Part shown: positions 3,813 to 61,273 of the stretch, piece by piece
Numbering within the stretch: the first letter of the stretch is position 1
Layout: every line of letters begins with the position of its first letter
Source: Candidatus Pacearchaeota archaeon
Lineage (GTDB): Archaea; Nanobdellota; Nanobdellia; UBA10117; JAFCGA01
Assembly (NCBI GenBank): GCA_017608345.1
Contig: JAFCGA010000001.1
Coordinates: 97,766 to 161,765, forward strand
Direction: 5' to 3'
Length of the DNA stretch: 64,000 bases
Notes under the pieces: generated by a model
Databases searched by the model: none
What the model was told of the DNA's origin: nothing
What the model saw: only the letters and a program-made list of their open reading frames with translations
Translations under genes and position numbers: made by a program

Positions 3813-3831
3813 AAAATTCTATTGTTTCTAT

Positions 3832-12628: not shown

Positions 12629-12666
12629 ACTCTTTTACTTTAGTTATTATTGGGGTCGTAGCTCAG

Positions 12667-12703
12667 AGTCTTTCTTTCTCCTTGGGCGAGAAAGGCGAGT
12701 AAC
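12667..12703 (+). other. D-loop intron of tRNA-Phe (boundaries +/- 2 nt)
   Basis: The insert AGUCUUUCUUUCUCCUUGGGCGAGAAAGGCGAGUAAC lies between GCUCAG and UCGGGAGAGC. It has an internal hairpin CUUUCUC/GAGAAAG. Confidence 0.6.
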
Positions 12704-12747
12704 TCGGGAGAGCACTAGACTGAAGATCTAGGTGTCATGGGTTCAAA

Positions 12748-12859
12748 CGCTGCCCCTTTCTTTTAGAAAAAGAAAGGTGTAAGGTAGCCCAAAGAAAAGG
12801 CATTTACTACGCGACTTCGTCGCTCCGAATATGCCTTCGGCAACTTTGCAGCTGGAAAA
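12748..12859 (+). repeat. T-loop intron of tRNA-Phe, a member (C1) of the dispersed C-type structured repeat family
   Basis: A 10-bp hairpin CCTTTCTTTT-AGA-AAAAGAAAGG, then CCCAAAGAAAAGG and CGACTTCGTCGCTCCGAAT blocks, align with 38573-38670 and with the reverse complement of 35449-35552. The intron ends GCUGC/GCAGC pair next to the T-stem. Confidence 0.6.
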
Positions 12860-12873
12860 TCCCATCGACCCCA

Positions 12874-18687: not shown

Positions 18688-19536
18688 TTACATATCCGCC
18701 ATTACTGGCTTGTCTGCTATGAACTTACAAAGTAGATTAAGCTTTTTAAAGTATTTGCACATCTCCATGCATGCAAATTTCTCTGTTGAATAATGTGTTC
18801 CGCCGAGAATACTAATTCCTTCTTGCTTTGCAAAGTCATGAGCTTTCTGCGAGTACTTATTCTTTATTGATATCCCAGTTATATGTAAATTTACTCCTTC
18901 CTTCGCGACTTCCTTAAGCAAATCTATATCATTTCCGCCGCCAGGAATAACTGAAACCAAGCCGTCTTTTATTTCGCTAGCTCCATAATTATATAATTCA
19001 GTTCTGTGTCCGATCGCTTCCTCGAATTTCTTCTTTAATTCTTCAATAGTTTTGCACTTTGTTTCCCCGATCACTCCAGATAACGAACCAAAATAGTGTG
19101 CAAACGCCTTCTTAGGTTTAATTCCAAGCGCTTTTGCTAGACTTACTCCGGTTGAATATGGACCATAATTATCGAGCGGAACATGAAGGTTATATATTGA
19201 AATTCTGTTTTCTCTGAATTTTTCGAGCAGCTTTCTATCCATTTGATAAAAAGCTGGATCTTTCCTTACATCCCAGATAGATGGATGATGAACAAAAAGC
19301 ATAGCGTCCTGTGTACCTTTATCTAAAATCTCCTTCATTACTTTCTTCGAAGGAAAGACAGCTGTATAAACTCGATTTATCTCTTCTGCGAAGTCGCAGA
19401 CTAAACCCATTGATCGCTTCTTAAAATTCTCGCTAAGAAAATCTGCGACAGAATCCATATATTTTGCCCACTCATCACTTAGTCCCGGATTTATGAAATC
19501 CTTTTCTAGCTGCGCGTAGAGTTTAGTTGCTTTCAT
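18688..19536 (-). CDS. NIF3-family dinuclear metal centre protein (GTP cyclohydrolase I type 2 homolog)
   Basis: MKATKLYAQLEKDF..., VHHPSIW, LHVPLDN and GGTHYSTEK are typical NIF3/YbgI blocks. Confidence 0.8.
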   Translation of the reverse strand: MKATKLYAQLEKDFINPGLSDEWAKYMDSVADFLSENFKKRSMGLVCDFAEEINRVYTAVFPSKKVMKEILDKGTQDAMLFVHHPSIWDVRKDPAFYQMDRKLLEKFRENRISIYNLHVPLDNYGPYSTGVSLAKALGIKPKKAFAHYFGSLSGVIGETKCKTIEELKKKFEEAIGHRTELYNYGASEIKDGLVSVIPGGGNDIDLLKEVAKEGVNLHITGISIKNKYSQKAHDFAKQEGISILGGTHYSTEKFACMEMCKYFKKLNLLCKFIADKPVMADM

Positions 19537-19910
19537 GTACTGATGCTACCCTTTGCGTCCCTAATAAGAACCTCTAAGCGATTAGGATCATCAATGTTGC
19601 TTCCCCTTTCCATTAAGAGTACATCGAGTCCAAAATAGCTGTATTCTCTTATTGCTCTTGAGGCAGTGTCAGAGAGATACGAAAGCAGAGTATTTGTGCA
19701 CCTGAATATCTCTCCGTCATGAGGCGAATATTTCGGGATAAAAGTATCTCGATAAAAATCAATAAATATCTGACCGCTATGGATTAGTCTCTCCTCGCGT
19801 TTCTTTATTCTTCCCAGATCCGAAGACATTGGCTCGTGCCTTGGATGCAGTTCTAAATAACGCTTACTCAAATCTTCTAAATCAGATACTAATGCAGCTA
19901 ATTGATTCAC
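19533..19910 (-). CDS. hypothetical helical protein, tandem paralog B (126 aa from the GTG at 19910)
   Basis: The GTG start sits in the same GTGAATCAATTAGC context as paralog A. (M)[20 protein letters not shown]... aligns with paralog A along its whole length. Confidence 0.5.
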   Translation of the reverse strand: MNQLAALVSDLEDLSKRYLELHPRHEPMSSDLGRIKKREERLIHSGQIFIDFYRDTFIPKYSPHDGEIFRCTNTLLSYLSDTASRAIREYSYFGLDVLLMERGSNIDDPNRLEVLIRDAKGSIST

Positions 19911-20287
19911 TGTACCGTCACCCCCGCTTTTGCTCTTTCGATAAACTTTTCTAGAACAGTTGGCTCGCCAATAAAAGAACTTTTCGTACACATCAGAACA
20001 CCTAATGCAAAATAGTTAGAATTACTTGCTGCTTCTGCGGCCTTTTGAGAAAGACCTAAAAGTAAATCCTTCGCCTCGCGGAAAATTGGTCCCTTCTCGG
20101 GAGCGTATCTCTGTTTGAAAATACTTTGATAAAAATCAATGACTAACTCTCCACTTTCTATCAGCGGATCCTTAATTAGATGTAGCTGTCCGATCGAGGG
20201 AGCGGCATCCATTGCAGAATTCAGAAGACCCAAATAAGTCTTATTAAGTTCCTCCAAATCCTCGATAAGTTCAGCTAATTGATTCAC
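19907..20287 (-). CDS. hypothetical helical protein, tandem paralog A (126 aa)
   Basis: The GTG start overlaps the cyclophilin stop (GTGA). The sequence is [21 protein letters not shown]...[27 protein letters not shown]. Confidence 0.5.
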
Positions 20288-21000
20288 TCTACCGTCACCT
20301 TCTCCATCACAATCGGCTCTAGCGGTCGATCCATTGGGCCAACTTCAACACTTCCAATTGCCATTAGCACGTCCTCGCCTTCGATTACATGACCGAAAAC
20401 TGCGTGTTTGTTGTCTAGCCAGGATGTTGCGGCGAGAGTTACGAAAAATTGACTGCCACCAGTGTTAGGGCCAGAATTAGCCATTGATAAAATTCCGGCT
20501 TTGTCATGTCCTAAGTCAGGATGGAATTCATCCTCAATTGAGTAGCCTGGGCCGCCTGTGCCATCGCCGTTTGGATCTCCGCCCTGAATCATAAAGTCTT
20601 TGATAACTCGGTGGAATACCAAGCTGTCGTAGTATCCCTTCTGAGCTAGATCAATAAAATTCTGAGATGTTTTAGGCGCTTTTTCAGTTTCTAGCTGGAA
20701 CTTCATAGTTCCTTTGTTTGTTTCGATAGTTACTATTCCTTTCATGTTAGTTTCCTCAGTTTCCCCAATAGGTTCTTCTATTCTCGCGGGTACTATATCT
20801 TCTTCTGTCAGAGGCTCAGTATCAGGAGCTTCTGGTTCCGACGTGTCTGCCTGCTCTCCATCTTGATCTTCAGTTTTAGCTGAATCCGTTGACTCTATTG
20901 CTCCTTTATCTCCTGCGAATACAAAATAAACCACGCTGCTGATAAGAGCTATTGCAATAATAGCGATTATTATTTTAGTGAGCTTTTTCATGAGCATCAA
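20284..21000 (-). CDS. membrane-anchored cyclophilin-type peptidyl-prolyl cis-trans isomerase
   Basis: An N-terminal TM helix and acidic linker precede [15 protein letters not shown]...GGPGY...[17 protein letters not shown]...[11 protein letters not shown]. Confidence 0.85.
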
Positions 21001-33150: not shown

Positions 33151-34011
33151 TTACCTAAGCTCAATATAATTAGTTGTTCCATGCGGGATTCGCTTAATAA
33201 CACCGCGCTCTTCGAGATGTCTGAGAACCCTACTTAGTTTAGCTTTTGAGAAGTCGACTTGCTTTTCAATTTGCTTCTGTCTTATTGGCTCCTTATACTG
33301 CTTAATTATATCTACAACTCGCGCTTCATCACCGAGCAGTCTGACTTTTGGTTTAGACTTGCGTCTCAATTTCTTTCGGTAAAATATGTATGTGGGTGGG
33401 ATAAGCAATAGCAAAAGCAGAATATACCAATAATTTACTTGCTGGGCTTGCTCATAAATAGCAGAAACTTCGAAATCTCTACTCAGATTTTCCCGCTCAA
33501 AAAGGAGAATTATTCTGCGACCATCTGAGTAAACGCTCGTAGGCTCGGGAGTTACATATTTATTTATATCTTCAGAGATTATAACATATCCTTCAGGCAA
33601 TTTTAAGCGGAATCTAAGTTCTTCTGTTTCGAAGTTGAATCTAATAGTCTGTTTGAATATTCTCTTATTGTGCAACGGTACAACCGGGTACTCCGTCTTA
33701 AAACTCGCTGTTATAAAGTAGTCTGAGTCTATTCCTGCTAGCGGACAGGTGATTTTAGTAGCGCCCCTGATGAGTTCCTGCTCGCAAGATGTGGCTCGGT
33801 CGTTGATTTTTAGGTCTAGCTCCTCAATGTCTGGCGGCAAGAAAAGAATTATCTTTCTCCCGCTATCATATTTAACAAATATTTCTAGCTGCTCGCTAGC
33901 AATACCTTTATCTAGAACTGCCTCTAAGTCATAAGAATAAAATTCTAAAGCCGAGGCAGCAGGTATCAATACCAACATCAGGAAAAATATAGCTAAGCGC
34001 CGAATGAACAT
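33151..34011 (-). CDS. membrane-spanning protein with an extracellular N-domain and a cytoplasmic C-terminal winged-helix DNA-binding domain
   Basis: It has a signal or TM segment at the N-terminus, a TM helix WYILLLLLLIPPTYIFY, then VVDIIKQYKEPIRQKQIEKQVDFSKAKLSRVLRHLEERGVIKRIPHGTTNYIEL (MarR/TrmB-like wHTH). Confidence 0.55.
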   Translation of the reverse strand: MFIRRLAIFFLMLVLIPAASALEFYSYDLEAVLDKGIASEQLEIFVKYDSGRKIILFLPPDIEELDLKINDRATSCEQELIRGATKITCPLAGIDSDYFITASFKTEYPVVPLHNKRIFKQTIRFNFETEELRFRLKLPEGYVIISEDINKYVTPEPTSVYSDGRRIILLFERENLSRDFEVSAIYEQAQQVNYWYILLLLLLIPPTYIFYRKKLRRKSKPKVRLLGDEARVVDIIKQYKEPIRQKQIEKQVDFSKAKLSRVLRHLEERGVIKRIPHGTTNYIELR

Positions 34012-34073
34012 GTAGTAATATTAAGTAATATTCTTTTAAATTTACGCTTTTGCACTGAAATAACTAACAAATA

Positions 34074-34085
34074 CCTTTTTAAATT
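34074..34085 (+). promoter_or_regulatory. TATA box CCTTTTTAAATT positioned for the orphan ATG at 34105, not for the intact aIF2-gamma ATG
   Basis: It ends 20 nt upstream of 34105. No comparable box precedes 34231. Confidence 0.45.
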
Positions 34086-34104
34086 CCCTTCTTTACTTTT
34101 CTAC

Positions 34105-34158
34105 ATGACAAAAGAATGCCTCCCCGAAATGAATATTGGTCTCATCGGCCATGTTGAG
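34105..34158 (+). pseudogene. orphan duplicate of the first 18 codons of aIF2-gamma
   Basis: ATGACAAAAGAATGCCTCCCCGAAATGAATATTGGTCTCATCGGCCATGTTGAG encodes MTKECLPEMNIGLIGHVE. The gene start encodes MVKECLPEMNIGLIGHVD. Most differences are synonymous. Confidence 0.7.
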
Positions 34159-34230
34159 GTCACTCACTTTTCCTCGTGGGTTTACAACCCGACTCGCAAA
34201 ACCGAGGCCAAAAACCAAAGAGAATAACAA
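34159..34230 (+). repeat. I-type structured insert (72 nt) between the orphan and the intact aIF2-gamma 5' ends
   Basis: GTCACTCACTTTTCC...GCAAAAC...CCAAAAACCAAAGAGAATAACAA shares its terminal blocks with the reverse complement of 61274-61362. It has nested hairpins CCTCG/CGAGG and GGGTT-TAC-AACCC. Confidence 0.6.
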
Positions 34231-35448
34231 ATGGTAAAAGAATGCTTACCCGAAATGAACATTGGCTTAATCGGCCATGTTGATCATGGAAAAACAACCC
34301 TAACTGCGGCGCTCTCTGGCAAGTGGACAGATATTCATTCTGAAGAACTTAAGCGAGGTATCACTATAAAGTTAGGATACGCAGATGTAGACATACGAAA
34401 GTGTCCCAAATGCAAAGCACAGGAAGCTTACACTACTAAAGAAAAATGTCCGAAATGCAAATCAAAGACTAAACTCCTCAGAAAAGTCTCGCTAATCGAC
34501 GCTCCTGGCCACGAAACGCTTATAGCAATCATGATCTCCGGAGCTGCAATTATGGATGGCGCGCTATTAATGATCGCTGCTAACGAGCCTTGTCCTCAGC
34601 CGCAAACCCGCGAGCATTTAGCTGCATTAAAAATTCTAGGAATCAAAAATCTAGTAATTATTCAAAATAAAGTTGATCTAGTAACTAAAGAAGAAGCTAA
34701 GAAAAATCACAAAGCTATAAACAAGTTCGTAACGGAAGCTCTCGGTTTCGAGGTTCCAATCATACCAATCTCTGCTCAGAAACAAGCAAACGTAGACTTT
34801 GTAGTCGAAGCAATTGAAGAACTTTTGAAAGCTCCAGGCAAATGCAGTGGAAATCCAGAAATGGTAATTGCACGTAGCTTCGACATTAACAAACCTGGAA
34901 CTAAAATTCCCGAACTCTGTGGCGGTGTTCTTGGCGGAGCAATTATTTCCGGCGAGTTCAAAGTCGGAGATAAACTAGAGATCAGACCTGGTCCAAAGAA
35001 CGAGAAAGGACAATGGGAACCTATAATAACGAAGCTGAACTCAATAGCTTGCGGTTGTGTATGCGTTAAATCAAAGTGCTCTGGCGGTTCTATAGCCTTT
35101 GCAACCGCTCTAGATCCTTCGATGACAAAAAGCGACTCCCTTGTAGGTAATCTAGTTGGAATTGCTGGCAAAATGCCTCCGGTTTTTCATAACCTCGAAT
35201 TAGAAACAAAGCTCTTCGGTAAAGTTATGGGCGTTAAAGAAGACACACTTATCGCACCAATAAAAGGTAACGAGCCACTTATGATTTCTGTAAGCACCTG
35301 TACAACGCTCGGAATAGTAGCTCAAGCAGGCAAAAAGATCAGATTAAATCTAAAACGCCCAGTATGCGCACATAAAGGAGATAAGGTAGCAATTTCTCGC
35401 CAGATTAGAAATCGCTGGCATTTGATTGGCTTTGGGATTATTAAATAA
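34231..35448 (+). CDS. eif2g: translation initiation factor aIF2 gamma subunit
   Basis: G-domain NIGLIGHVDHGKTTL, DAPGHE, NKVD; zinc ribbon CPKC...CPKC; 405 aa. Confidence 0.95.
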   Translation: MVKECLPEMNIGLIGHVDHGKTTLTAALSGKWTDIHSEELKRGITIKLGYADVDIRKCPKCKAQEAYTTKEKCPKCKSKTKLLRKVSLIDAPGHETLIAIMISGAAIMDGALLMIAANEPCPQPQTREHLAALKILGIKNLVIIQNKVDLVTKEEAKKNHKAINKFVTEALGFEVPIIPISAQKQANVDFVVEAIEELLKAPGKCSGNPEMVIARSFDINKPGTKIPELCGGVLGGAIISGEFKVGDKLEIRPGPKNEKGQWEPIITKLNSIACGCVCVKSKCSGGSIAFATALDPSMTKSDSLVGNLVGIAGKMPPVFHNLELETKLFGKVMGVKEDTLIAPIKGNEPLMISVSTCTTLGIVAQAGKKIRLNLKRPVCAHKGDKVAISRQIRNRWHLIGFGIIK

Positions 35449-35552
35449 AGCGAGCTGATGAGTGAGCGATTATTCCCGAGCGCAGCGAGCAATCTGCTTC
35501 TTTCTTTTTGGACGCCTAGTTTTTCTTTCTTGCAAGAAAGAAAAAATGGCTT
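35449..35552 (-). repeat. C-type structured repeat (C2, inverted orientation) inserted between the two copies of the aIF2-gamma 3' end
   Basis: Its reverse complement aligns with 38573-38670 and 12748-12859. Shared parts are the polypyrimidine/polypurine hairpin (TTTTTCTTTCTTGCAAGAAAGAAAAA), CCAAAAAGAAAG, and GCTCGCTGCGCTCGGGAATAATCGCTCACTCATCAG. Confidence 0.6.
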
Positions 35553-35594
35553 AGAAATCGCTGGCATTTAATCGGATTCGGAATAATTAAGTAA
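35553..35594 (+). pseudogene. orphan duplicate of the last 13 codons plus stop of aIF2-gamma
   Basis: AGAAATCGCTGGCATTTAATCGGATTCGGAATAATTAAGTAA encodes RNRWHLIGFGIIK*, as does 35407-35448. There are 7 differences and all are synonymous third positions. Confidence 0.7.
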
Positions 35595-35602
35595 ACTGGA
35601 TA

Positions 35603-37288
35603 CTATAATCTCTGTGCTGTTCCAGCGCGTAGTTTAAGCGTAACAGGTATTGTTTCTATATATATATAGTTATAATCTATATCTGCAAGCGCAGTGAGCG
35701 TTTGATAGGGCGCACCGCCGAGGTATTCATCATCTACATAAAAATTCAGATAAACTACTTCACTCTTCCCTACTTCGAGTGGTCGCAAATATTCTCGAAG
35801 ATAGCTCTCAGATAATTCATAGTGCTGCAACTTAGGGTACTGATTTCCGGCTACATAAGTCTGTCCAGTTTTTCTAAATTGGCTTCCCGTGCTAACTGCA
35901 GTCACATGTTTTGCAGGCAATACTAAAGTAAGGCTATTAATCGACAACTGATTACTAAAATCCCCAGATTTAAACGCAATCCCTAAATCTTGTCGGTATG
36001 TTGAAGTTGGCTCGTTTTCAACTGCAGGCAAGAAACTATCTGAAGGGTTCCCGCTGGAAAATACACTAGTAAGAAAATCCTTTTTCGAAACTCTTGCCAA
36101 ACCCATTGACAAGTCAATTGTTTTTCCATCGCTAGCTACGTGCGCTTTAGTCTGATCCGCAGTTATTTTAAAGCGATCTGCTGGATTGCCAATATACGAA
36201 GCAGTATCTGTAACAAATAGATTCTTAGAAACTTTCGCACGCGTATTGTGAATCAGTTTGAAAGTTACTTCGAAAGTTCGTAATGGCATCTTGAGAAGAT
36301 CAGACGTCCCAAGTGGGGGATGAGTACATGTAAATCGAGTATCACTTATACTGGTAACGGTGAATGAGTTTTCTCCTTCGAAACCAAAAAGCTCGCAAGT
36401 CCAATCATGTGCTAACTCTGGTGCTGTCGCTAACGGATCTGGATCAATTCCTAATGTCAACATTACGTTCTCATCTGCAAAAGTGCTAATCGCATCTAAC
36501 GTACCGCTAATGCGAATAGGATCGCCAGTAAAAAAATCCACTGGTGCGCCCAAATCATGAATTACCACACCTGCACCGTCATTAACTACTAATTCCGAAG
36601 AGATTTCTCCTGAATCCCATTGCTGACCGGGTCCAACAGTAATTGTCTGCCACATGTTACTTAAATGCCCTTTAGCTGGTCGGAATGCGTTCATCAATCC
36701 AACTTTGGTTTCTACTCCTTCACTACCTATTACTCCCCCAATATAAGTTCCTTCAACAGAAGGCGCAATAAAGAAGATATATACTAAATAAAGTATTCCC
36801 AGAACTATCAAAATAAGTAATAAATGTCTAAAGAAATACCCCGTTTTATGTCCTGCTTCAGCAATTTTCGCTCTATGCTCTTCGCCTGCTTGCTTCCATC
36901 CTGAAGCAAGAGATGACTCTCTCATTAACGCCTTTTCCTTAAATTTAGCTAATCTGGTTTGCTCTTTTTCTTCTTTTTCTTTAACTGGAATCTCCCGAAC
37001 TTGCTCTTCTTCTATTACTTCTTCCTCGGGGTCTTCTCTCGGTTTCCCACCAATCCATGCAAGAGCTTTTGTCCTGGCTTTTTCTTTAAATTCACCTGCG
37101 CCAGCTTTTGCTTTTTCTTTAAATTGGCTTGTACTTGCTCTTACTCGTGTCGGTGCATATTTAGCTCTAGCACCGAATGATCTAAATCTTGCTGTAAATT
37201 TAAGTGCGCCATTACACCATACACAATAATTCTGACCCGCTGGTGTTTCTTTTCCACAATGAGGACAAATCTCAGATTTTTCAATCAT
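35603..37288 (-). CDS. zinc-ribbon / single-pass membrane protein with a large extracellular domain (561 aa)
   Basis: An N-terminal CPHCGKETPAGQNYCVWC is followed by a Lys/Glu-rich linker, the TM helix FFRHLLLILIVLGILYLVYIFFI, and ~380 aa beyond it. Confidence 0.55.
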   Translation of the reverse strand: MIEKSEICPHCGKETPAGQNYCVWCNGALKFTARFRSFGARAKYAPTRVRASTSQFKEKAKAGAGEFKEKARTKALAWIGGKPREDPEEEVIEEEQVREIPVKEKEEKEQTRLAKFKEKALMRESSLASGWKQAGEEHRAKIAEAGHKTGYFFRHLLLILIVLGILYLVYIFFIAPSVEGTYIGGVIGSEGVETKVGLMNAFRPAKGHLSNMWQTITVGPGQQWDSGEISSELVVNDGAGVVIHDLGAPVDFFTGDPIRISGTLDAISTFADENVMLTLGIDPDPLATAPELAHDWTCELFGFEGENSFTVTSISDTRFTCTHPPLGTSDLLKMPLRTFEVTFKLIHNTRAKVSKNLFVTDTASYIGNPADRFKITADQTKAHVASDGKTIDLSMGLARVSKKDFLTSVFSSGNPSDSFLPAVENEPTSTYRQDLGIAFKSGDFSNQLSINSLTLVLPAKHVTAVSTGSQFRKTGQTYVAGNQYPKLQHYELSESYLREYLRPLEVGKSEVVYLNFYVDDEYLGGAPYQTLTALADIDYNYIYIETIPVTLKLRAGTAQRL

Positions 37289-38526: not shown

Positions 38527-38572
38527 AATTTAACTTAAGGTGGTTCCAAATAAATACTTTTCCCCTGTCAAT

Positions 38573-38670
38573 CCCTTTTCTTTGCGAAAGAAAAGGTCTA
38601 GACGTTACCCCAAAAGAAAGCAGTTAACTCCGCTTCGCTCCGAATTAAACGCTCACTCATCAGTTCGCTC
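38573..38670 (+). repeat. C-type structured repeat (C3) in the divergent intergenic region upstream of the primase
   Basis: A perfect 10-bp hairpin CCTTTTCTTT-GCG-AAAGAAAAGG (38574-38596) is followed by CCCCAAAAGAAAG, CTCCGCTTCGCTCCGAATTAAACGCTCACTCATCAG. Confidence 0.6.
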
Positions 38671-38712
38671 TAAACTACCATATTCTTATTAAACTTTCTT
38701 ACTACTAGCAGT

Positions 38713-43916: not shown

Positions 43917-44099
43917 ATGAAAGATAAAGGTCCAAAATCAAGATTTGTAAGAGTAAGATGCGCTAAATGTAAAAACGAGCAGACTATATTCGGCCATGCT
44001 TCTCGTGTGGTTAAGTGCTTAGTTTGTAGCGAAGTTCTAGCTGAGCCGCGAGGCGGAAAAGCTAATATTAAAGCTAATGTTCTAGAAGTTTTGAGCTAA
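43917..44099 (+). CDS. rps27e: ribosomal protein S27e (eS27)
   Basis: [41 protein letters not shown]. Confidence 0.9.
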
Positions 44100-44135
44100 G
44101 AAAGGCTTTTTAAGGTTTTATTTAGCGATTATCGC

Positions 44136-44426
44136 ATGATAAGTGCTCATGCTCACATAATTACTAAAAATAATAATAATCGAGTAGATCTGTATTATAT
44201 TCTAGAATCCTCTAAATATTCAGCTCTCGGTTCAAGGCGAAGACGAAAGAAAAACAAGGGTCTTGAAGTCATAATTACTGAAATTCAAATTCCTTTCGGA
44301 GAAATAGACCTAATTCTGAAATTAGAATCCAAAGAAAGAGGATTAATTGAGAAATTCGCTGAGAAATATTTAAGGAAGTTAGAAGAAGTTGAAAAAGTGG
44401 AGATAACAACTGAGCCGAAACTCTAA
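44136..44426 (+). CDS. small Lrp/AsnC ligand-binding (RAM)-domain-like protein with an insertion after strand 1
   Basis: VIITEIQIPFGEIDLILKLESKERGLIEKFAEKYLRKLEEVEKVEI has the pattern of stand-alone RAM domains. It uses the same promoter box as the next gene. Confidence 0.35.
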   Translation: MISAHAHIITKNNNNRVDLYYILESSKYSALGSRRRRKKNKGLEVIITEIQIPFGEIDLILKLESKERGLIEKFAEKYLRKLEEVEKVEITTEPKL

Positions 44427-44461
44427 GAAAGGCTTTTAAGTTTTTATCTAGAGAGCAGAAT

Positions 44462-49546: not shown

Positions 49547-52500
49547 ATGAAAAAGGCAATTAAGAAAGTAATATCTATAATTATTATAGCTGCAGTGTTT
49601 ATTTTAGTAGTACCAATCATAACTGCAGGTGCAACTGAGGCAAGTATTGTTGTAAGTGAAGTTCAAACAGATAGTACTGTTGGTGCAGGAGGCACAGCAG
49701 ATGATTGGGTCGAACTGTATAACCCAACAGATTCTGCGGTGATTTTAGATGGCTGGTCAATCCAAGAAGGATTAAGTGATGGATCTTCTTTTTATCGGAA
49801 AGAACTAATTGGAACAATCCCCGCACAGGGTTATTTCTTAATCGTTAGAAGTGATGCAGATTCTTCACTAACAGACCTAGCGGATGTAATTGCAGCAACT
49901 AGTTTTTCGCTAACAGACGATAATGTTATTTATTTAGTTAATAATAATGAAGATATTACTGGTGCAGATGATCCAGATATTGTTGATTTAGTTGGATTTG
50001 GAGATTCTACCATTTTTGAAGGCACTGGCACTGCAGCTAATCCTGCTGAAAGTGGAAGCATAGAAAGAAAATCTGGAGAGATTCATTCCGAAGGAAAGGG
50101 AAATGGATGGGATAGTAATGATAATTCTGCTGACTTCTTTGTCTCAACTCCAAATCCACAGAATACGGCGAGCACTTCTGAAGCGCCGCCGCTAGACGTC
50201 TGTAAGACAGGATGTGTTTATTCAACAATCCAATCTGCAATAGACGCTGCAACAGAAGGAGACACAATTAATGTTGCTGCTGGGACTTATACTGAAGACC
50301 TAACAATTGATATAGGAATTACTATGTCTGGTTCAGACGCGTCGGAAGTAACTGTAAATGGTGAACATACAATATCTTCAGACGATGTAACTTTGGAAGA
50401 AGTTACTTTTAATATAGCTGCAGATACTGCAGGAATATTAATTGATTCATCTTCTTCTACAATAAATAATATTATAATTACAGATTCTGTTTTTGATTTT
50501 CCAAGTAATCCGGGAACCGGAGTTGTAGGAATTATACTTGGTGGATATTCTTCACCAAATAAGGTATCAAATATATATATCAACAATAACGTATTCAATG
50601 GACCGGATAACAAAAACTGCAATCCTTGGAAAATCGGTGGAGGATTCGGTAGCCCGGTCTCTTGCGAAGTTCAAGACGTAGACTTTGAAAATAACGCTGT
50701 TGATAGATGTTCAACGCCAATAAATTTACAGGATAGTAATATTGATGACCTTTTAATAAATAATAATGTATATACAAACACAGACGGAGTTCTATATGTA
50801 TGGGCTCAAGATGGATCAGCACCATCCGGAGCTTTGTCTAACTTTGTATTTACAAACAACGATGTTGATTCTACGAATTCTTATGGTGTAGCTTTCTTCG
50901 ATAATGATCTAAATGGAGATACTTTTACCGATACGAACTTCGGAACAGGCAATAGGATCAATAATAATGAATTCGTCGGAATTACTGAAACATATGGATT
51001 AAAATCTCTTAGCATGCTAGCAGATCTAACTACTTATGAATTAGATGCAGAAAACAACTGGTGGGGCTGCAATGAAGGTCCTGGAGAAGCTGGCTGTGAT
51101 GCGGTAAGTGGAACTGTTGATTACACTCCATGGACAGTTCAAGCTGAAGACACTATCTCAACTACTAATGGAATAGCAGAAACAGTTGATACAGCTGGAA
51201 CAGCCGCGGGACTCACTATAACTACCATCGGAGATCAATCAGGAACAGTAACTATCCAGCAATCTAGCGAAGAATATCATGGCGGATTCGGAGCTACAGC
51301 ACTCGGAAAGTTCATCAATATTGAATCAACAATAGCTAATGAAGATATCTCCGAAGTTGAGATAAGAATTAGTTATACTGATGATGAGCTTACTGCAATC
51401 GGACTAGATGAAACTTCTCTGAAGCTATACTGGTGGAATTCTGCTAGCGAAGCATGGGAACTTCTAGGAAGTACGGGTGTTAATACAACTGGAAATTATG
51501 TGTGGGCCATCACAAACCACTTCAGCGATTTTGGAGTTGGGGGTGACCCAGATACTGACGCGCCAGTTATAACTGATGTTTACACTTCACCAAAATACGC
51601 TAGTCTAGCTGATAAGCTAGTGACAATATTTGCTACAATTGCAGATGGTGGAAGCGGAGTGAAACATTCTTTCTTATATTATCAAATCGGAGACGAAGAT
51701 TTACAAAATATTACTTTCAGTGGTCCACTAACTGGCGGAAGCGCGGGAATATTCCATGGAAATCCTCAAGATGGAATTGTAGTAAATTACCATATTAATT
51801 CTACAGATAATGTAGATAACAGCGCAAGATATCCTGGCTCGGGCTGGCTAAGCTATACTTATGATGGCACAGATCCAGTCACAACCTTGACAATCGACGA
51901 TCCGAAATACGGCTCGACATTCATTAGCTCTTCAACAAGTATCGAGCTAAGCTGCACTGATGCGACTAGCGGCTGCAACAAAACATACTATCGCATTAAT
52001 GAAGGTAGCGTTACTGAATATACTACTCCTTTCACCGTCGCTAATGAAGATGGAGATCATACAATACATTATTACAGCGTAGATAATGCAACAAATGAGG
52101 AAAACTCAACACCGGAAGTAATAACTCTAGATAATAGCGCCCCAATCACCACAGATAATGCAGCAAGTGATTGGCAAGGCGCCGACCTAGTCGTAGGTCT
52201 TACACCAACAGATGGCTCAGGAAGCGGTGTAAACATTACTAAATATTGTGTTGACACAACCGGAGCGTGTACTCCAGCTACGCAAGGTATTTCTGCATCA
52301 GTTACCTGCGCTGCAGATAGCGTTTGTGAAAGTCAATATGTAAATTATCAATCGCAAGACAATCTTGGACAATGGGAAACTGCGCATATGTCAAGTATAA
52401 TTAAAATAGACAAAGAAAAGCCAGATACAACCGACGATGCTTCGAGTGATTGGCAAAATACGAATGCAACTGTCTCTCTTACCTGCGAGGATCATGAAGC

Positions 52501-55500
52501 TAGCGGGTGCCAAGTAACATATTATACAACTGACGGGAGCGACCCAACAACTGGATCTGCTCAAGGTACTGAGATTCTAGTAACAGCAGACGGAACAAGT
52601 ACGGTAAAGTACTTTTCAGTTGATAATGTCGGCAATTCAGAAGCAGTGCAAACTGCAGCAAATACCGTTAAGATCGATAGAACTGTTCCTACCATTACAG
52701 AGGATTATGCGAATGATGGAGTATGGGTAAATGAAGCTCAGGATGTCACTTTAGATCCAACCGATACCGGTGGTTCTGGAATTGGAGATGTAGAATATTG
52801 CGAAGGTGAGGGATGTGCTCCTAATATCGTGCTTGCTGCACCATACTTACTGTCTTACCTGGCAGACAAAAACACAATAGTAAGATACAAAGTAACAGAC
52901 AGGGCTACAAATCCAAGCGAAATTGATGAGTTTAACCTCAAGCTTGATATGACTATACCAACAATCACGGATAACTACGAACATGACGGTACATGGGTAT
53001 CAGAAAACCAAACTGTCACTCTTTCTCCAGCAGATGCTCTTAGTGGGATAAACGTTGTTAAATACTGCACCGGAGCAGCATGTACACCCGACATTACAAC
53101 AACAGACTACGCTATTGAGTTTAACGGAGATCAGGACACCATCTTAAGATACCAAACTTGGGACAACGCAAGTAATCCTAGCGAAATCGGAGAAGTTAAT
53201 ATTAAAATAGACACAACTGGACCAACAATTATCGATGACTATGCAAATGATGCTGTATGGGTAAACACAGATCAGACGATTACTCTAACTCCCAGTGATT
53301 CAGGTGGCTCAGGAATAAAAGAAGTAAAATATTGTAGCGGAGCTGAGTGCACACCTACAAATGTTCTAGCAGCACCTTATCAATTAGCTTACACTACTAA
53401 TCAAGATACAATTGTTAGGTATATTGTTGTAGATAATGCTAACCGAGAATCTGGGATCGGAGAATTTAATGTTAAGATTGACAAGACTATACCAACAGTT
53501 ACTGAGGATTACGGGAATGATGGTGTATGGGTAACTACCGATCAGACAGTTAATCTAACTCCTGCTGACGAAGGTGGCTCAGACATCGACGTCGTTGAAA
53601 TATGTTACAGTGCTGGGTGCACTCCATCTGACGAACTAGAGGAATACGCAATTTCCTTCACCGAAGATATAAACATGATGGTGAGATATCAAGCATGGGA
53701 TAATGCAGACAATCCATCGTTGATTGGCGAATTCAAGATCATGCTAGATAAGCATGCGCCAACATTCATAACAAATGAAGGAACAGACGGAGAAGCTGTA
53801 ACTAGCGATATAATCAATGTGAACGTTGATGATACTTACTTAGATGAAAGTTCATTAAATTATGGATTTAGCGCAGATATTAATTGCGAGGAAGAAGTTG
53901 CATGGGAAGAGGGATTTACAAATAACGTTGATTTCACAATCACTGGAGATCATACAGATTATTTATGCGTAAAAGCAGCGGATCTTGCAGGAAATATTGG
54001 CTATCATCTAGTTGGACAGTTGAATGTGGATAATTCAAATCCAACTTTGACAAGTGTATCTATTATGTCCAGTAATACGAACAATGCATATGCGCAAGTT
54101 GAAGATACAGTTACAATTGCATTTACTGCAAGTGAAGATCTTAAAGCGACTCCTGACGTCACAATTGATGGCAATACTGCAACAATAACGCAGCAAGAAA
54201 CTGCTAGCACTTGGATAGCAACTCGAACAATGCAAACTGGAGATACAGCTGGAGTTGTAACTTTCGCTATTGACTTCAGTGATCTTGCAGGTAATGATGG
54301 CACTCAAGTAACTGATGTTACTGACGAGAGCTCAGTCACGTTCGACGAAACTAATCCTGTTGGAGACCTCGCAGACATTCCGGTGGAATGGCAGAATACT
54401 GACGCTACGCTAACGCTATCTTGCACTGATTCAGAAGGAAGCGGATGCAATTCTAATGAATTCTACCTGACAGTTGTGCCGATTGGGGATTTTGGGGTGG
54501 ACATGGCTATAAGCAACGGTGGATGTACTCCTATCGACCAGTATACTGAACCAGTATTCGTATCTGAGCATTCAACAGTTTGTTGGAGAGTAACAGATAA
54601 CGCAGGGAATGTCCATTCGGGTTCAGCAGAAATCACTGTTGATGAAATTGATCCAGATCTAGAAGATGATTATGGCGAGAATAATGGAATGTGGGTAAAC
54701 AGCGACCAGACGATCACTTTATTCCATTCAGATAGCGGGAATTCAGATATAGATGACGTTCTAATCTGCTACGGATCTGAATGTGATCCGGATATTGACG
54801 GTACTGAACTAAATGAACCATATACAATCGACTTTAACAACGATACTGATACGGTTTTGAGATATCAAGCGTGGGATAATGCGGGTAATCCTTCAGGGGT
54901 TGGTGAAATAGACATTATGATAGACAAAACTATTCCTACAACAAATGATGATTATGCCTACGATGCGGTTTGGATAAATACAGACCAAACCATTACGCTA
55001 ATTCCTTATGACGAACTAAGCGGGGTGGATGAAGTGCTATACTGTATCGGAAGTGAATGCGAACCAGATCTGCTGATTAACGAACCTTATGATGTACCTT
55101 TCTCGGGAGACACTGTAGCAACTTTAAGATATCTAACAATTGATGCTGCAGGCAATTCTGGCGAAACAGAAGAAGTTATTGTAAAGATTGACGAGACCAT
55201 ACCAACGATTGCGGATGATTACCTCTTCGACGACATTTGGGTTAATACAAATCAATTAGTAACTCACACACCTACAGACGGTCTAAGTGATATAAAAGAA
55301 GTCAGATACTGCAATTCTGGTCCTGATTGCGAGCCAGACACACTATTAACTGGGCTCTATCAGATAACTTATGTAACTGACCAGGAAACTACGGTGAGAT
55401 ATCGAGCATGGGATAATGCAGACAATCCGTCTGTAGTTGGTGAATACATCGTCAAAATTGATACTGTATCTCCAGATGTAACTAATTCCGGACCTAGTGG

Positions 55501-56050
55501 AGAACTTGATTACAGCACGCCTACGCTAACCGTAACAACTGATAAGGAAACAATCTGCAAATATGACACTAATCTGAAGTCCTTTGATAATATGGCTAAT
55601 TACTTAGGTTCATCAGAGACGCTGGGGCTAGCACATACAGCTAACTTGAACCTATATGATGGTAGCTATACCTACTATATCCGATGCAGAGACAAAGCAA
55701 ACAATGAAATATCAACTACTGTAACCTTCACGATTGATACCGCAGCTAACTATGGATTTACTGAAAATTTAGTACCTACTTGGGATACTTTCACTCTCCC
55801 TAAATTCGTGCTAGAAGATCTCGGCTACACAACTCCTGAACTAAGAAGCCCTGAAAGTATATTAGCCTCCATCGCAAGCAATTATGAGATAATCTGGTAT
55901 TATGACGGAGTTAATTGGGTATCTTACAAACCAGATACACCTGAATGGACTAATGACTTAATTGAATTTAATGACATGCAGAGCAATCCTTATTGGATAA
56001 CAATGATCAATGAAGATAGACTTGAGATAGCCGATTTAAATGAAATATAG
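49547..56050 (+). CDS. giant surface/adhesin-like protein (2167 aa): N-terminal anchor, lamin-tail-domain-like module, beta-helix region, and arrays of ~90-aa Ig-like repeats
   Basis: The N-terminal TM or signal is followed by VVSEVQTDS...DDWVELYNPTDSAVILDGWSI (LTD signature) and NNN-rich beta-helix turns. There are at least 7 well-conserved plus at least 3 diverged repeats of the type (K/M)IDxTxPTxxDDYxxDxVWVNxDQTxTLxPxDxxSGIxxVxYCxGxxCxP...xRYxAWDNAxNPS. Confidence 0.8.
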   Translation: MKKAIKKVISIIIIAAVFILVVPIITAGATEASIVVSEVQTDSTVGAGGTADDWVELYNPTDSAVILDGWSIQEGLSDGSSFYRKELIGTIPAQGYFLIVRSDADSSLTDLADVIAATSFSLTDDNVIYLVNNNEDITGADDPDIVDLVGFGDSTIFEGTGTAANPAESGSIERKSGEIHSEGKGNGWDSNDNSADFFVSTPNPQNTASTSEAPPLDVCKTGCVYSTIQSAIDAATEGDTINVAAGTYTEDLTIDIGITMSGSDASEVTVNGEHTISSDDVTLEEVTFNIAADTAGILIDSSSSTINNIIITDSVFDFPSNPGTGVVGIILGGYSSPNKVSNIYINNNVFNGPDNKNCNPWKIGGGFGSPVSCEVQDVDFENNAVDRCSTPINLQDSNIDDLLINNNVYTNTDGVLYVWAQDGSAPSGALSNFVFTNNDVDSTNSYGVAFFDNDLNGDTFTDTNFGTGNRINNNEFVGITETYGLKSLSMLADLTTYELDAENNWWGCNEGPGEAGCDAVSGTVDYTPWTVQAEDTISTTNGIAETVDTAGTAAGLTITTIGDQSGTVTIQQSSEEYHGGFGATALGKFINIESTIANEDISEVEIRISYTDDELTAIGLDETSLKLYWWNSASEAWELLGSTGVNTTGNYVWAITNHFSDFGVGGDPDTDAPVITDVYTSPKYASLADKLVTIFATIADGGSGVKHSFLYYQIGDEDLQNITFSGPLTGGSAGIFHGNPQDGIVVNYHINSTDNVDNSARYPGSGWLSYTYDGTDPVTTLTIDDPKYGSTFISSSTSIELSCTDATSGCNKTYYRINEGSVTEYTTPFTVANEDGDHTIHYYSVDNATNEENSTPEVITLDNSAPITTDNAASDWQGADLVVGLTPTDGSGSGVNITKYCVDTTGACTPATQGISASVTCAADSVCESQYVNYQSQDNLGQWETAHMSSIIKIDKEKPDTTDDASSDWQNTNATVSLTCEDHEASGCQVTYYTTDGSDPTTGSAQGTEILVTADGTSTVKYFSVDNVGNSEAVQTAANTVKIDRTVPTITEDYANDGVWVNEAQDVTLDPTDTGGSGIGDVEYCEGEGCAPNIVLAAPYLLSYLADKNTIVRYKVTDRATNPSEIDEFNLKLDMTIPTITDNYEHDGTWVSENQTVTLSPADALSGINVVKYCTGAACTPDITTTDYAIEFNGDQDTILRYQTWDNASNPSEIGEVNIKIDTTGPTIIDDYANDAVWVNTDQTITLTPSDSGGSGIKEVKYCSGAECTPTNVLAAPYQLAYTTNQDTIVRYIVVDNANRESGIGEFNVKIDKTIPTVTEDYGNDGVWVTTDQTVNLTPADEGGSDIDVVEICYSAGCTPSDELEEYAISFTEDINMMVRYQAWDNADNPSLIGEFKIMLDKHAPTFITNEGTDGEAVTSDIINVNVDDTYLDESSLNYGFSADINCEEEVAWEEGFTNNVDFTITGDHTDYLCVKAADLAGNIGYHLVGQLNVDNSNPTLTSVSIMSSNTNNAYAQVEDTVTIAFTASEDLKATPDVTIDGNTATITQQETASTWIATRTMQTGDTAGVVTFAIDFSDLAGNDGTQVTDVTDESSVTFDETNPVGDLADIPVEWQNTDATLTLSCTDSEGSGCNSNEFYLTVVPIGDFGVDMAISNGGCTPIDQYTEPVFVSEHSTVCWRVTDNAGNVHSGSAEITVDEIDPDLEDDYGENNGMWVNSDQTITLFHSDSGNSDIDDVLICYGSECDPDIDGTELNEPYTIDFNNDTDTVLRYQAWDNAGNPSGVGEIDIMIDKTIPTTNDDYAYDAVWINTDQTITLIPYDELSGVDEVLYCIGSECEPDLLINEPYDVPFSGDTVATLRYLTIDAAGNSGETEEVIVKIDETIPTIADDYLFDDIWVNTNQLVTHTPTDGLSDIKEVRYCNSGPDCEPDTLLTGLYQITYVTDQETTVRYRAWDNADNPSVVGEYIVKIDTVSPDVTNSGPSGELDYSTPTLTVTTDKETICKYDTNLKSFDNMANYLGSSETLGLAHTANLNLYDGSYTYYIRCRDKANNEISTTVTFTIDTAANYGFTENLVPTWDTFTLPKFVLEDLGYTTPELRSPESILASIASNYEIIWYYDGVNWVSYKPDTPEWTNDLIEFNDMQSNPYWITMINEDRLEIADLNEI
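52670..53749 (+). repeat. four tandem 264-270-nt coding repeats (repeat block A) inside the giant protein gene
   Basis: Unit starts at 52670, 52940, 53204 and 53474 (KID-T-PT...). Each unit contains one Cys pair (for example KYCSGAECTP). Confidence 0.75.
54641..55462 (+). repeat. three further tandem ~265-280-nt coding repeats (repeat block B) of the same family
   Basis: Units start near 54641, 54920 and 55184, separated from block A by ~900 nt of non-repeat sequence. Confidence 0.7.
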
Positions 56051-59186: not shown

Positions 59187-60086
59187 ATGAAAAAAATAAT
59201 CTTTGTTTTAGCGCTACTTGCATTTATACCGCTAGCTAGCGCGGCATTGAATACTGCAGAGCTAGGCAATGTTCTTGTCGAAGAGACAAAATATGATCCT
59301 TATCCTGCTGAGCCAGGTAAATATATAACGGTTTGGATTAGCGTAGACAATCAAGGATCAACAACGATGGATAATATGTTCTTCAAGTTTGATCCAGATT
59401 ATCCTTTTCAGCTAAATCCTGGACAAAGCGGAATAGTAAGCACTGGGAAGCTGCCTCCAGGTCAAGATAAGCTAGTTGAGTATACGCTAAGAGTTGACGA
59501 AGAGGCCATGGAAGGCAGTTATGAGCTTGATTTAAAACTATGTTATGGTAGCGATTGTTCTAGCTGGGCGAGAACTTATAGCCTTCAGATATCTGTCCGT
59601 ACCGGCGGAGAGCCAAAAGTCGAGCTAGGATTAGAAGAAACCGACGTATTCAATGCAGGTAAATTAGGTGAATTCACACTTAATATTGTAAATCGAGGTC
59701 AATTAGATACTAAATTCCTAAGAGTTGCAGTTCAGGAGTCAGATAACTATGAGATTATCGGGCCTGCGGAGAAATATATTGGAGAGCTAGAATCAGACGA
59801 CTTCGAGACTGCTCAATATCAAATATTCATTGAGAATAATATCGGAAGCGAAGAAAGTGAAATGTTAGAAGTTCCGATTAAAGTAGAATACAGCGATGAG
59901 AATAATAAAGACTATTCAGATTTCCAGACAATATATCTAAAGTCATATTCTACAGAAGATTTAGAAAAGATGCATCTCGCGGCTAGCAGTCTCACTTGGA
60001 TTTGGGTTCCAATTGTAATTATTATAGGTATTAGTTATTTCATCTATATACGGGTTAAAAAGAAGAAACAGCAGAAAAAGGCATAA
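59187..60086 (+). CDS. secreted protein with a C-terminal TM anchor, encoded between the ABC ATPase and permease (299 aa)
   Basis: The ATG at 59187 lies just after the ATPase stop. It has a signal peptide MKKIIFVLALLAFIPLASA and the C-terminal WIWVPIVIIIGISYFIYIRVKKKKQQKKA. Confidence 0.6.
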   Translation: MKKIIFVLALLAFIPLASAALNTAELGNVLVEETKYDPYPAEPGKYITVWISVDNQGSTTMDNMFFKFDPDYPFQLNPGQSGIVSTGKLPPGQDKLVEYTLRVDEEAMEGSYELDLKLCYGSDCSSWARTYSLQISVRTGGEPKVELGLEETDVFNAGKLGEFTLNIVNRGQLDTKFLRVAVQESDNYEIIGPAEKYIGELESDDFETAQYQIFIENNIGSEESEMLEVPIKVEYSDENNKDYSDFQTIYLKSYSTEDLEKMHLAASSLTWIWVPIVIIIGISYFIYIRVKKKKQQKKA

Positions 60087-61273
60087 TGATCGAGTATCTA
60101 AAGATAGCCGTAAGGAATATTTCTCAGCGGAAACTTAGAAGCTGGCTAACTATTATTGGTGTAATTATCGGTATTGGCGCGATTATTTCTCTTATTTCCA
60201 TTTCAAACGGAATGGAGCATGCTATTACAGAACAGTTTGAATCATTTGATACCGATCTTATAACTATTACTCCTTCTAATTTTAGAGGTCCGGGAAGTTC
60301 CTCAGGGGAATTCACAGATAAAGAAGTTGATGCGATTCGTAAAATCTCTGGACTAAAACATGTAACTCCGATGATTATGAGTAGTGCAAAAATCAGTTTT
60401 CATAACCAAGATAAATATTTATCTGTCATGGCGTACGAGGCCACTTCGGAGTCAGAAGATATGTGGGAGGATTTTGGGTTCGAGATAAATAAAGGCCGCT
60501 TTCCGCGAGAAGGTCAAGGTAAAGTAGTTGGGTTGGGCGCAAGGGCTGCAACTGATTTATTTGATGATGAACTTCACGTTAGAAATAATATCTACATTGA
60601 TGATATTAAATTTAAGGTTACGGGAATAGCCGATGAAATAGGCAATGCTCAAGATGACAATGCTATATTCATGCCCCTTGATACTGCTAAAGAGTTATTC
60701 AATAAAACAAATTATGGATTTATTATTGCTGTCGTAAACGAAGGCGTTGATGTAGATAAAATGGCTGATAGAGTTGAGAAAAAGATGAGTCGGCTTCGCG
60801 ATGAAGAAGAATTTCAAGTCATGACTGCTACTGAGATGCTAGCAACAGTCGGTACGATCCTCGGAATATTACAGCTCGTATTAGTGGGAATCGCAGGGAT
60901 TAGCTTGTTGGTCGGAGCAGTTGGTATTATGAATACGATGTACACATCAGTTATGGAACGAACGCGAGAGATTGGCGTGATGAAAGCCATCGGAGCTACA
61001 AACAGATCGATTATGACTATATTCTTATTTGAAGCCGGCATTATTGGGATAATTGGTGGAACAGCTGGTGCAGCGATAGGTACAGGGATTGCTCAGGTAG
61101 TCGGATTCGTAGCTTCAAATATGGCTTTACCGCTACCATTAAAAGTAATTATCGAATGGAAACTAATCGGCTACTGTATTGCATTTGCTTTCGGATTGGG
61201 CGCCTTAAGCGGATTCTTGCCTGCTAGGTCAGCTGCTAAAATGAAGCCTGCGGATAGTCTTAGGTATGAATAA
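60086..61273 (+). CDS. ABC transporter permease, MacB/FtsX family
   Basis: It has an N-terminal TM helix, a large extracytoplasmic domain, and a C-terminal FtsX-type three-TM bundle (GAVGIMNTMYTSVMERTREIGVMKAIGA). The ATG shares one base with the upstream stop. Confidence 0.85.
   Translation: MIEYLKIAVRNISQRKLRSWLTIIGVIIGIGAIISLISISNGMEHAITEQFESFDTDLITITPSNFRGPGSSSGEFTDKEVDAIRKISGLKHVTPMIMSSAKISFHNQDKYLSVMAYEATSESEDMWEDFGFEINKGRFPREGQGKVVGLGARAATDLFDDELHVRNNIYIDDIKFKVTGIADEIGNAQDDNAIFMPLDTAKELFNKTNYGFIIAVVNEGVDVDKMADRVEKKMSRLRDEEEFQVMTATEMLATVGTILGILQLVLVGIAGISLLVGAVGIMNTMYTSVMERTREIGVMKAIGATNRSIMTIFLFEAGIIGIIGGTAGAAIGTGIAQVVGFVASNMALPLPLKVIIEWKLIGYCIAFAFGLGALSGFLPARSAAKMKPADSLRYE

Follow-up and report, generated by a model that had tools for sequence, protein, structure and literature searches.

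Both ends of an archaeal aIF2-gamma gene are duplicated around short inserts: a plausible scar of recombination or integration between two diverged alleles

The locus of the translation factor gene aIF2-gamma of a Candidatus Pacearchaeota archaeon was examined in a 64-kb window, that is, the whole 64,000-nt stretch of contig JAFCGA010000001.1 (assembly GCA_017608345.1, positions 97,766 to 161,765 of the forward strand) analyzed here, and was compared with five related loci (L009, L011, L132, L133, and L135). The gene (34231-35448, plus strand), hereafter B, is intact and intron-less and encodes 405 amino acids with the PF00009 and PF09173 domains. It is complete, residues 7 to 404 aligning to the aIF2-gamma structure 1S0U in the PDB with E = 1e-142. 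The closest aIF2-gamma proteins to B are 77%, 73%, and 69% identical, and the nearest relatives in a scan of GTDB genomes only 55%. An exact look-up of the aIF2-gamma of the window gave no record, and in a cluster look-up the genome stood as a singleton. Along the plus strand the locus is composed of a promoter, an orphan copy of the 5' end of the gene (54 nt), a 72-nt insert, the gene itself, a 101-nt insert, and an orphan copy of the 3' end (45 nt). We refer to the allele represented by the two orphans as A. A scan of each gene end in the window against its own 400-nt flank gave only three outliers by alignment score, namely the two ends of aIF2-gamma (30 for the 5' end and 23 for the 3' end) and a permease gene at its 3' end (21), while all other gene ends scored 13 or less.

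The orphan 5' copy (34105-34158, plus strand) corresponds to codons 1 to 18 of what appears to be a diverged aIF2-gamma allele. A repeat search aligned 34105-34157 with 34231-34283 at 85% identity and a spacing of 126 nt, and blastn within the window recovered the same pair with E = 2e-9. The encoded peptides are MTKECLPEMNIGLIGHVE and MVKECLPEMNIGLIGHVD. There are nine nucleotide differences in the pair, six of which are silent (CTC/TTA twice, AAT/AAC, and GGT/GGC); the non-silent ones are ACA/GTA at codon 2 and GAG/GAT at the junction codon. The last 14 nt of the orphan, ATCGGCCATGTTGA, are the same in the working copy. This duplication, including its nine differences with six of them silent, had been described in a sequence-only reading of the same DNA, and the repeat search, blastn, and codon comparison all bear that description out. 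The sequence-only reading did overlook the second duplication at the 3' end, as well as the multi-copy nature of the inserts and the mini-intron and LAGLIDADG-like open reading frame (ORF) of the relatives, all of which are described below.

Translation from the orphan ATG runs through the orphan copy and then through 22 codons read from the insert, giving an upstream ORF (uORF) of 40 codons (34105-34227, plus strand). Its TAA stop at 34225-34227 is followed by CAA and then by the real ATG at 34231, so that the two frames are the same and the gap is 3 nt, as the sequence-only reading had noted. The TATA-like promoter CCTTTTTAAATT (34074-34085, plus strand), which serves the orphan ATG, lies inside a 93-nt divergent intergenic region in common with the gene at 33151-34011 on the minus strand. 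A census of TATA-like hexamers ahead of 64 ORF starts in the window showed that in 24 of them the hexamer starts 27 to 32 nt ahead of the ATG, which is a leaderless arrangement. The orphan ATG, with its hexamer at -28, is among these 24, and no TATA-like hexamer was found in the census within the 55 nt upstream of the real ATG. The earlier statement that the only good TATA box is spaced for the orphan ATG is therefore confirmed. No well-placed Shine-Dalgarno sequence was found ahead of the ATG at 34231; the nearest GAGG is 27 nt off, too distant to act as one. The same promoter motif is found in L009 and L011, where it lies 22 to 23 nt ahead of an ATG.

At the other end of the gene, 35405-35449 and 35551-35595 are 84% identical with a spacing of 146 nt, and flank the 101-nt insert (copy d1, 35449-35550, plus strand). 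The working 3' end (35405-35449, plus strand) comprises the final 14 codons and TAA, and the orphan 3' copy (35551-35595, plus strand) has the same 14 codons and TAA with seven differences, all silent. Both encode IRNRWHLIGFGIIK*, and their first 19 nt, TTAGAAATCGCTGGCATTT, are identical. The stop codon of the orphan lies 7 nt from that of the convergent gene 35603-37288; in L009, the corresponding two convergent genes overlap by 8 nt and have no insert between them. Inside d1, positions 35520-35545 form a perfect palindrome of 13 bp accompanied by runs of T on either strand, and these would be expected to act as a two-way terminator because the palindrome sits between two convergent genes.

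A close examination of the differences between the copies suggests that the orphans did not arise by duplication and decay in place. If the junction codon is set aside, the eight remaining differences of the 5' pair lead to a single amino-acid change, at the variable codon 2. Third-position divergence between the copies is about 0.4. Outside the junction codons, the only changes at first or second positions are ACA/GTA at codon 2 and the two silent CTC/TTA leucine pairs. The chance of so few amino-acid changes was calculated for a case in which all substitutions are random and for one in which half of them are, the latter corresponding to a neutral orphan beside a selected gene; it is at most 5e-5 for each pair in the all-random case and rises in the half-random one to 0.028 (5' pair) and 0.007 (3' pair). 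Differences that are nearly all silent contradict decay in place and indicate that the orphans come from a diverged, once-functional allele, which agrees with the sequence-only reading, where the 5' orphan had been attributed to a functional homologous allele rather than to a decaying copy. If the orphan ends and the attached ends come from different functional alleles, almost only silent differences are to be expected.

The differences are also unevenly placed. They cluster in the outer parts, the inner 14 nt of the 5' pair and 19 nt of the 3' pair being identical, and in the 3' pair they affect seven of the last eight codons and none of the first six (p = 0.0023). The orphans thus have a chimeric look, each consisting of an inner block identical to the working gene and an outer part that seems to come from a well-diverged allele. 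Similarity between the copies ends exactly at the ATG and one base past the stop codon. Such sharp edges are expected if only selected coding sequence stays alignable, or if an element carries just the end of a gene.

Three further origins for the copies were considered and rejected. The differences (C/T, C/A, T/C, A/G, and G/T) are not adenine-specific, which speaks against a diversity-generating retroelement. A retrogene made from the gene's own spliced mRNA was considered because it explains the edges at ATG and stop and the missing intron; copies of this kind are identical at their origin, yet the orphans carry no random decay. In a simple tandem duplication the inserts would be repeated head to tail, and the 72-nt and 101-nt inserts each occur once at the locus.

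Both inserts belong to repeat families: within the 64 kb, the 72-nt type is present twice and the 101-nt type three times. The copy of the 72-nt family at the 5' end of the gene (c1, 34159-34230, plus strand) has the conserved ends TCACTCACTTTTCC and CAAAAA.CAAAGAG. The sequence-only reading had called it rich in hairpins and had suggested a search with TCACTCACTTTTCC. The hairpins receive no statistical support, the fold being no better than that of shuffled sequences (z = -1.5 and -1.0). The search proved productive: the exact 14-mer occurs twice in the window, at 34160 on the plus strand and at 61341-61354 on the minus strand, and the second occurrence also lies beside a gene-end duplication. 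This second copy (c2, 61274-61353, minus strand) shares both ends with c1 (nhmmer E = 3e-17 and 3e-20 for these two copies, from which the profile was built) and is located between duplicated gene ends, 61241-61273 and 61354-61386, which are 33 nt long and 88% identical with an identical core of 20 nt. The 33 nt are where two convergent genes overlap at their ends, the permease gene 60086-61273 (plus strand) and the gene for a 198-residue protein at 61373-61969 (minus strand), and c2 together with the duplication uncouples these two genes. No homologues of the 198-residue protein were found when an empty site at 61.3 kb was searched for.

The 101-nt family is represented, besides d1, by d2 (38569-38675, minus strand), which lies between two divergent genes and has no duplication visible on its flanks. 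Both d1 and d2 carry CTGATGAGTGAGCG, and their local alignment score of 71 was reached by none of 1000 shuffles. The third copy, d3 (12748-12858, plus strand, with the family sequence antisense), is a weaker relative (E = 0.018 with the two-copy profile; d2-d3 score 43, reached by none of 1000 shuffles) and coincides with a 111-nt intron that interrupts the T-loop of a tRNA-Phe(GAA) gene (12652-12873, plus strand) that had not been called. This gene contains two non-canonical introns, the other being 35 nt long and located in the D-loop (12669-12703). ARAGORN reported zero tRNAs in the unedited 64 kb and a perfect tRNA-Phe(GAA) after removal of the 35-nt and 111-nt inserts. The 111-nt intron is strongly structured (fold z = -4.15), and its closing stem is not preserved in d1.

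Searches for relatives of the inserts elsewhere were negative. Rfam gave no relevant match for either insert, with the window at the gathering threshold and 34000-35700 by E-value. Neither family was found in viral contigs, and a metagenome scan with the 14-mer TCACTCACTTTTCC alone returned chance matches only. Of the features by which miniature inverted-repeat transposable elements (MITEs) and insertion sequences are recognized, the inserts show multiple copies; terminal inverted repeats were weak at best and none was clear in the repeat search, and in place of a short duplication of fixed length (2-15 bp) the flanking duplications are 33 to 54 nt long and vary in length. The family 14-mers at 34160-34166 and 35459-35465, which bracket gene B, are partly complementary (TCACTCA and TGAGTGA).

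The sequence-only reading had also proposed a comparison with related genomes, and all five loci compared turned out to lack both inserts and both duplications, i.e., to be empty sites. Three of them (L132, L133, and L135) were reached via their neighboring LAGLIDADG-like ORF. A different insertion was encountered in these loci, a bulge-helix-bulge (BHB) mini-intron of 30 to 33 nt within the His codon of the aIF2-gamma P-loop (GHVDHGKT). The mini-intron loci are L009 2539-2606 (33 nt), L011 5000-5065 (31 nt), L132 4839-4905 (32 nt), L133 4779-4843 (30 nt), and L135 4752-4816 (30 nt). All five fold into an outer helix, 3-nt bulges, a central helix formed by TTGG and CCAA, and an inner hairpin that varies. 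If the cuts are placed between the second and third bulge residues, as the cleavage rule for BHB motifs has it (PMC2738675), IG(L/F)IGHVDHGK is restored in every case. The 31-nt and 32-nt lengths break the frame, so that removal of the intron is required. As a consequence, public gene calls for these aIF2-gamma genes are truncated or missing: two of the three nearest aIF2-gamma proteins are called without an N-terminus, and the DNA of L009 and L011 shows the mini-intron.

The orphan 5' copy can be compared with these intron-bearing alleles in two respects. It carries ATTGGTCTC, the outer BHB helix strand of all five of them, which is present in no intron-less allele, including B. In addition, its inner edge, the boundary with the 72-nt insert, falls 7 nt downstream of the intron site shared by the five related loci (GGAC|A..|ATGT). 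We also found that ATGTTGAGG matches both the exon of B and the 5' end of the L009 intron.

Of the five relatives read, four have a LAGLIDADG-like ORF immediately ahead of aIF2-gamma, these four being all the loci of the family that were examined (L009 1192-2562, L132 3501-4892, L133 3501-4799, and L135 3501-4772). The family consists of proteins of about 430 amino acids, of which 20 members were found, and its match to Pfam LAGLIDADG_3 is just at the cutoff. In at least 12 of the 20 members the ORF extends in frame into exon 1, as far as the mini-intron. The ORF often starts leaderless at the promoter, and within it a Shine-Dalgarno sequence, GGAGG(TGA), lies ahead of the probable start codon of aIF2-gamma in these loci. 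Judging from the names of the nearest database hits, the mini-intron and the LAGLIDADG-like ORF appear to be spread over a Woesearchaeota-like DPANN clade. A candidate for a decayed orphan 5' copy upstream of the L009 ORF was discarded, as 132 of 2000 shuffles aligned equally well.

The sequence-only reading had suggested that RNA processing might join copy A to copy B. Removal of 126 nt in register from the 5' region would restore an ORF, and nothing in the sequence defines such cuts. A scan of the locus for BHB motifs whose cut sites are separated by 126 nt or 146 nt was negative. Motifs of these spacings would require a self-complementary central 4-mer, and the candidates GGCC, CATG, and TTAA are without flanking helices. 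The 72-nt insert forms no BHB motif with a usable 3' exon. The sole canonical BHB within it (34168-34214) is at background level, the two strands of the window giving 13 and 19 hits and shuffles 11 to 23, and excision of its 32-nt internal unit would yield TCG-TAA, a stop. A BHB splice joining the two copies was accordingly rejected.

On balance we favor, with moderate confidence, the reading that the aIF2-gamma locus is the scar of a recombination or integration between two diverged alleles. The orphans have kept the native promoter and the spacing to the neighbors, the attached ends come from the other allele, and the junctions lie at repeat families, which together argue for a recent event. 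According to this proposal, the resident allele A would still have its original promoter, codons 1 to 18, the last 14 codons, and its place beside the neighbors, and its interior would have been replaced or displaced by the 72-nt element, a complete intron-less B, and the 101-nt element. Crossing over probably took place within the identical blocks of 14 nt and 19 nt. The event can be pictured in two forms, and these are still the two sources put forward in the sequence-only reading, recombination with another lineage and an element-borne copy of the target. Either a whole-gene cassette was swapped in for codons 19 to 391 of the resident, which probably once bore the intron, so that both ends are accounted for by a single event; or two att-like (attachment site-like) integrations of miniature elements each brought a replacement gene end, so that only the ends now joined to the gene would be newcomers, with the identical blocks serving as crossover cores and the 61.3-kb locus as a third case, which would account for the edges at ATG and stop and for the recurrence of the structure.

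Several observations count against a scar of recombination or integration. The cassette form demands two illegitimate junctions, and the integration form two independent hits on one gene by DNA units of only 113 to 146 bp. No integrase, homing endonuclease, or transposase gene is present in the 72- to 101-nt inserts, and tblastn of the window with the 20 LAGLIDADG-like proteins matches only the exon-1 tail of aIF2-gamma, with no ORF remnant. The codon usage and third-position GC content (GC3) of B are typical of the window and give no compositional sign of foreign origin. The amino-acid-changing differences in the permease-side duplicate fit a plain target duplication followed by decay. Finally, the databases searched contain no full-length A-type allele or sister genome, the next-best aIF2-gamma being 77% identical, and donor and recipient can hence not be assigned.

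The likely cause of the event is selfish-element traffic at aIF2-gamma, the locus being read as a hotspot for such elements. As a special case of the scar between two alleles, a homing endonuclease could have broken the resident gene at its P-loop codons, with loss of the gene body and rescue by a resistant intron-less allele bringing short flanks. A double-strand break of this kind is an attractive trigger because the orphan edge falls near the mini-intron site, and both the part of an endonuclease and the direction of the event are inferences. The orphan ends 7 nt from a site that is occupied in five loci and that also marks the end of the LAGLIDADG-like ORF in at least 12 relatives, B differs by about eight silent changes from the intron-less homing site reconstructed from the relatives, and the outer part of A matches that site. 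A chance coincidence of position is nevertheless of the order of 1-2%, the enzyme activity and its target are putative with the Pfam LAGLIDADG_3 match only at the cutoff, the window contains neither an endonuclease gene nor a remnant of one (the 72-nt insert included), and the permease case is left unexplained; we therefore regard this version as unlikely, if appealing. In another scheme, two or three MITE-like or intron-like elements inserted independently into one lineage, each with a long target-site duplication (54, 45, and 33 nt) that later diverged in place. The conserved ends and multiple copies of the insert families, the occurrence of three insert-plus-duplication cases per 64 kb, the identical inner blocks expected of a true duplication, and the amino-acid-changing differences in the non-functional part of the permease duplicate all point this way. 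On the other hand, a neutral orphan at a third-position divergence of about 0.4 should by our estimate show about 16 changes at first and second positions, and the count is only two nucleotides, both of them within codon 2. Duplication edges at an ATG or a stop in three of three cases are not expected from random staggered cuts, terminal inverted repeats are weak at best, and to our knowledge target duplications of 33 to 54 nt and of variable length are not made by known transposases. We consider this scheme rather improbable.

Two other explanations are much less probable. The orphans could be real exons, with a splicing endonuclease excising the 72-nt insert together with the 5' end of B (126 nt) and the 3' end of B together with the 101-nt insert (146 nt), so that both sets of copies would be under coding selection. 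BHB mini-introns do occur in the same gene of relatives, the genome carries non-canonical tRNA introns including one from the 101-nt family, and removal of either unit in register restores an ORF. Yet BHB motifs with cuts 126 or 146 nt apart are missing, the candidate 4-mers being without flanking helices, the closing stem of the tRNA intron is lost in d1, and B is already complete without splicing, so that nothing would hold both sets of copies under selection; all this makes real exons very improbable. An assembly chimera of two co-occurring strains is brought to mind by the metagenomic origin of the contig, by a locus that is unique in the databases, and by an allele divergence typical of related species. 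The junctions of the orphan 5' copy with the 72-nt insert and of the 101-nt insert with the orphan 3' copy lie, however, outside sequence shared by the alleles, and a misassembly through the shared blocks of 14 nt and 19 nt would link A in register with B itself, not with the flanks of B. The same architecture is found again at 61.3 kb with a paralogous insert, and further copies of the insert families occur in ordinary contexts. A chimera is on these grounds hardly credible.

Returning to the scar between two alleles, its layout has consequences for expression. Transcription would start leaderless at the orphan ATG (34105), ribosomes would translate the 40-codon uORF and stop at its TAA (34225), and reinitiation would take place 3 nt further on, at the ATG at 34231, while the palindrome and T-runs of the 101-nt element would end both convergent transcripts. 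From the arrangement of promoter, uORF, and start codon, it is most likely that the real gene depends on reinitiation after the uORF. Termination-reinitiation, or translational coupling, downstream of uORFs on leaderless archaeal mRNAs is the appropriate comparison. The window uORF resembles such cases in that it begins with the presumed 5'-terminal ATG, its stop codon is 3 nt ahead of the main start codon, and a Shine-Dalgarno sequence is missing. It differs in being an accidental copy of the gene's own N-terminus rather than an evolved regulator.

Among known systems, the closest pattern is the att duplication produced by integrative elements that carry a replacement gene end. Archaeal integrases of the SSV and pNOB8 types, and bacterial islands in tRNA and tmRNA genes, insert at a gene end, carry a replacement for it, and leave att direct repeats. 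Direct repeats of 30 to 60 nt are formed in these systems and repeats of 54, 45, and 33 nt here; both have an identical core (14, 19, and 20 nt here) and a diverged, function-preserving arm that runs exactly to the end of the gene, and in both the displaced host end survives outside as an orphan and empty sites are found in relatives. In contrast to them, the interiors in the window are only 72 to 101 nt long and contain no integrase, both ends of one protein gene have been hit, the 5' case cuts an essential gene off from its promoter, and one of the insert families is also a tRNA intron. Homology-facilitated illegitimate recombination and allelic replacement are similar in that a diverged allele lies inside a resident locus with short identical blocks near the junctions. 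Ordinary replacement leaves no duplicated ends, whereas in the window they are present on both sides of the gene, and a member of a repeat family adjoins each of the two junctions.

Collaborative homing offers a parallel for the relatives. Free-standing homing endonuclease genes accompany introns that interrupt the target of the enzyme in cyanophage psbA and in T4-like phages, and LAGLIDADG ORFs are found in archaeal rRNA introns. The relatives similarly have a LAGLIDADG-like ORF directly upstream and a mini-intron that splits the most conserved P-loop codons, and the orphan in the window ends beside that site. The window itself has neither the ORF nor the intron, and the introns of the relatives are of BHB type and 30 to 33 nt long, not group I, with a putative endonuclease activity. 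As for known archaeal BHB introns, the inserts of the relatives have the same succession of helix, 3-nt bulge, 4-bp helix, and 3-nt bulge, and cuts placed by rule restore the frame. The gene (aIF2-gamma) and the lineage are different, and the 72-nt insert in the window has no such motif.

A bolder idea, which we put forward as doubtful, is that the inserts represent a class of miniature elements in DPANN archaea that has so far gone undescribed, mobile as DNA and related to introns, entering conserved gene ends with a recoded version of the target end, and that the same families also occur as BHB introns in tRNA genes. If so, the element would bring the recoded end with it, and the host end would be orphaned afresh at each integration.

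Some other features of the window were noted in passing. An archaeal signal recognition particle (SRP) RNA gene lies at 3828-4101 (plus strand); its score of 95 bits is below the Rfam gathering score of 96.5, and it is thus missed at the default threshold. Repeated intergenic modules composed of hairpins and a TATA-like motif (3178-3255 and 3737-3812) precede the gene at 3276 and the SRP RNA gene, and a promoter module, AAGAAAGGCTTTTTAAG, is repeated at 44096-44128 and 44423-44454 ahead of two adjacent genes. The region 19533-20299 (minus strand) is an ordinary tandem duplication of a small gene with paralogues of 126 amino acids, unlike the pattern at aIF2-gamma. Its repeat unit takes in 16 nt from the end of the cyclophilin gene that precedes it, and the first paralogue therefore ends with a copy of the cyclophilin C-terminus (VTVQ* vs VTVE*). 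Internal repeats of 50 to 130 nt with 70-86% identity (52667-55448) in the gene for a 2167-residue protein (49547-56050) are probably repeated protein domains.

The P-loop BHB mini-intron with its upstream LAGLIDADG-like ORF is a by-product of the comparison that is perhaps of equal interest to the locus itself. At that locus, an essential and universal translation factor appears to be driven from the promoter of a dead copy of its own first 18 codons, which would make it a naturally occurring system in which to test reinitiation on leaderless mRNAs of archaea. The silent-only pattern of differences suggests that a core informational gene was recently swapped, in whole or in part, between diverged lineages in a DPANN-type genome. 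The small repeats that mark the junctions include one that is also a tRNA intron, a possible link between intron families and rearrangement at the DNA level. If the inserts are indeed miniature mobile elements, they may provide a route for introns into archaeal protein-coding genes, and, together with the mini-intron and the LAGLIDADG-like ORF of the relatives, would make aIF2-gamma a natural arena for selfish elements that cleave, replace, and rescue.

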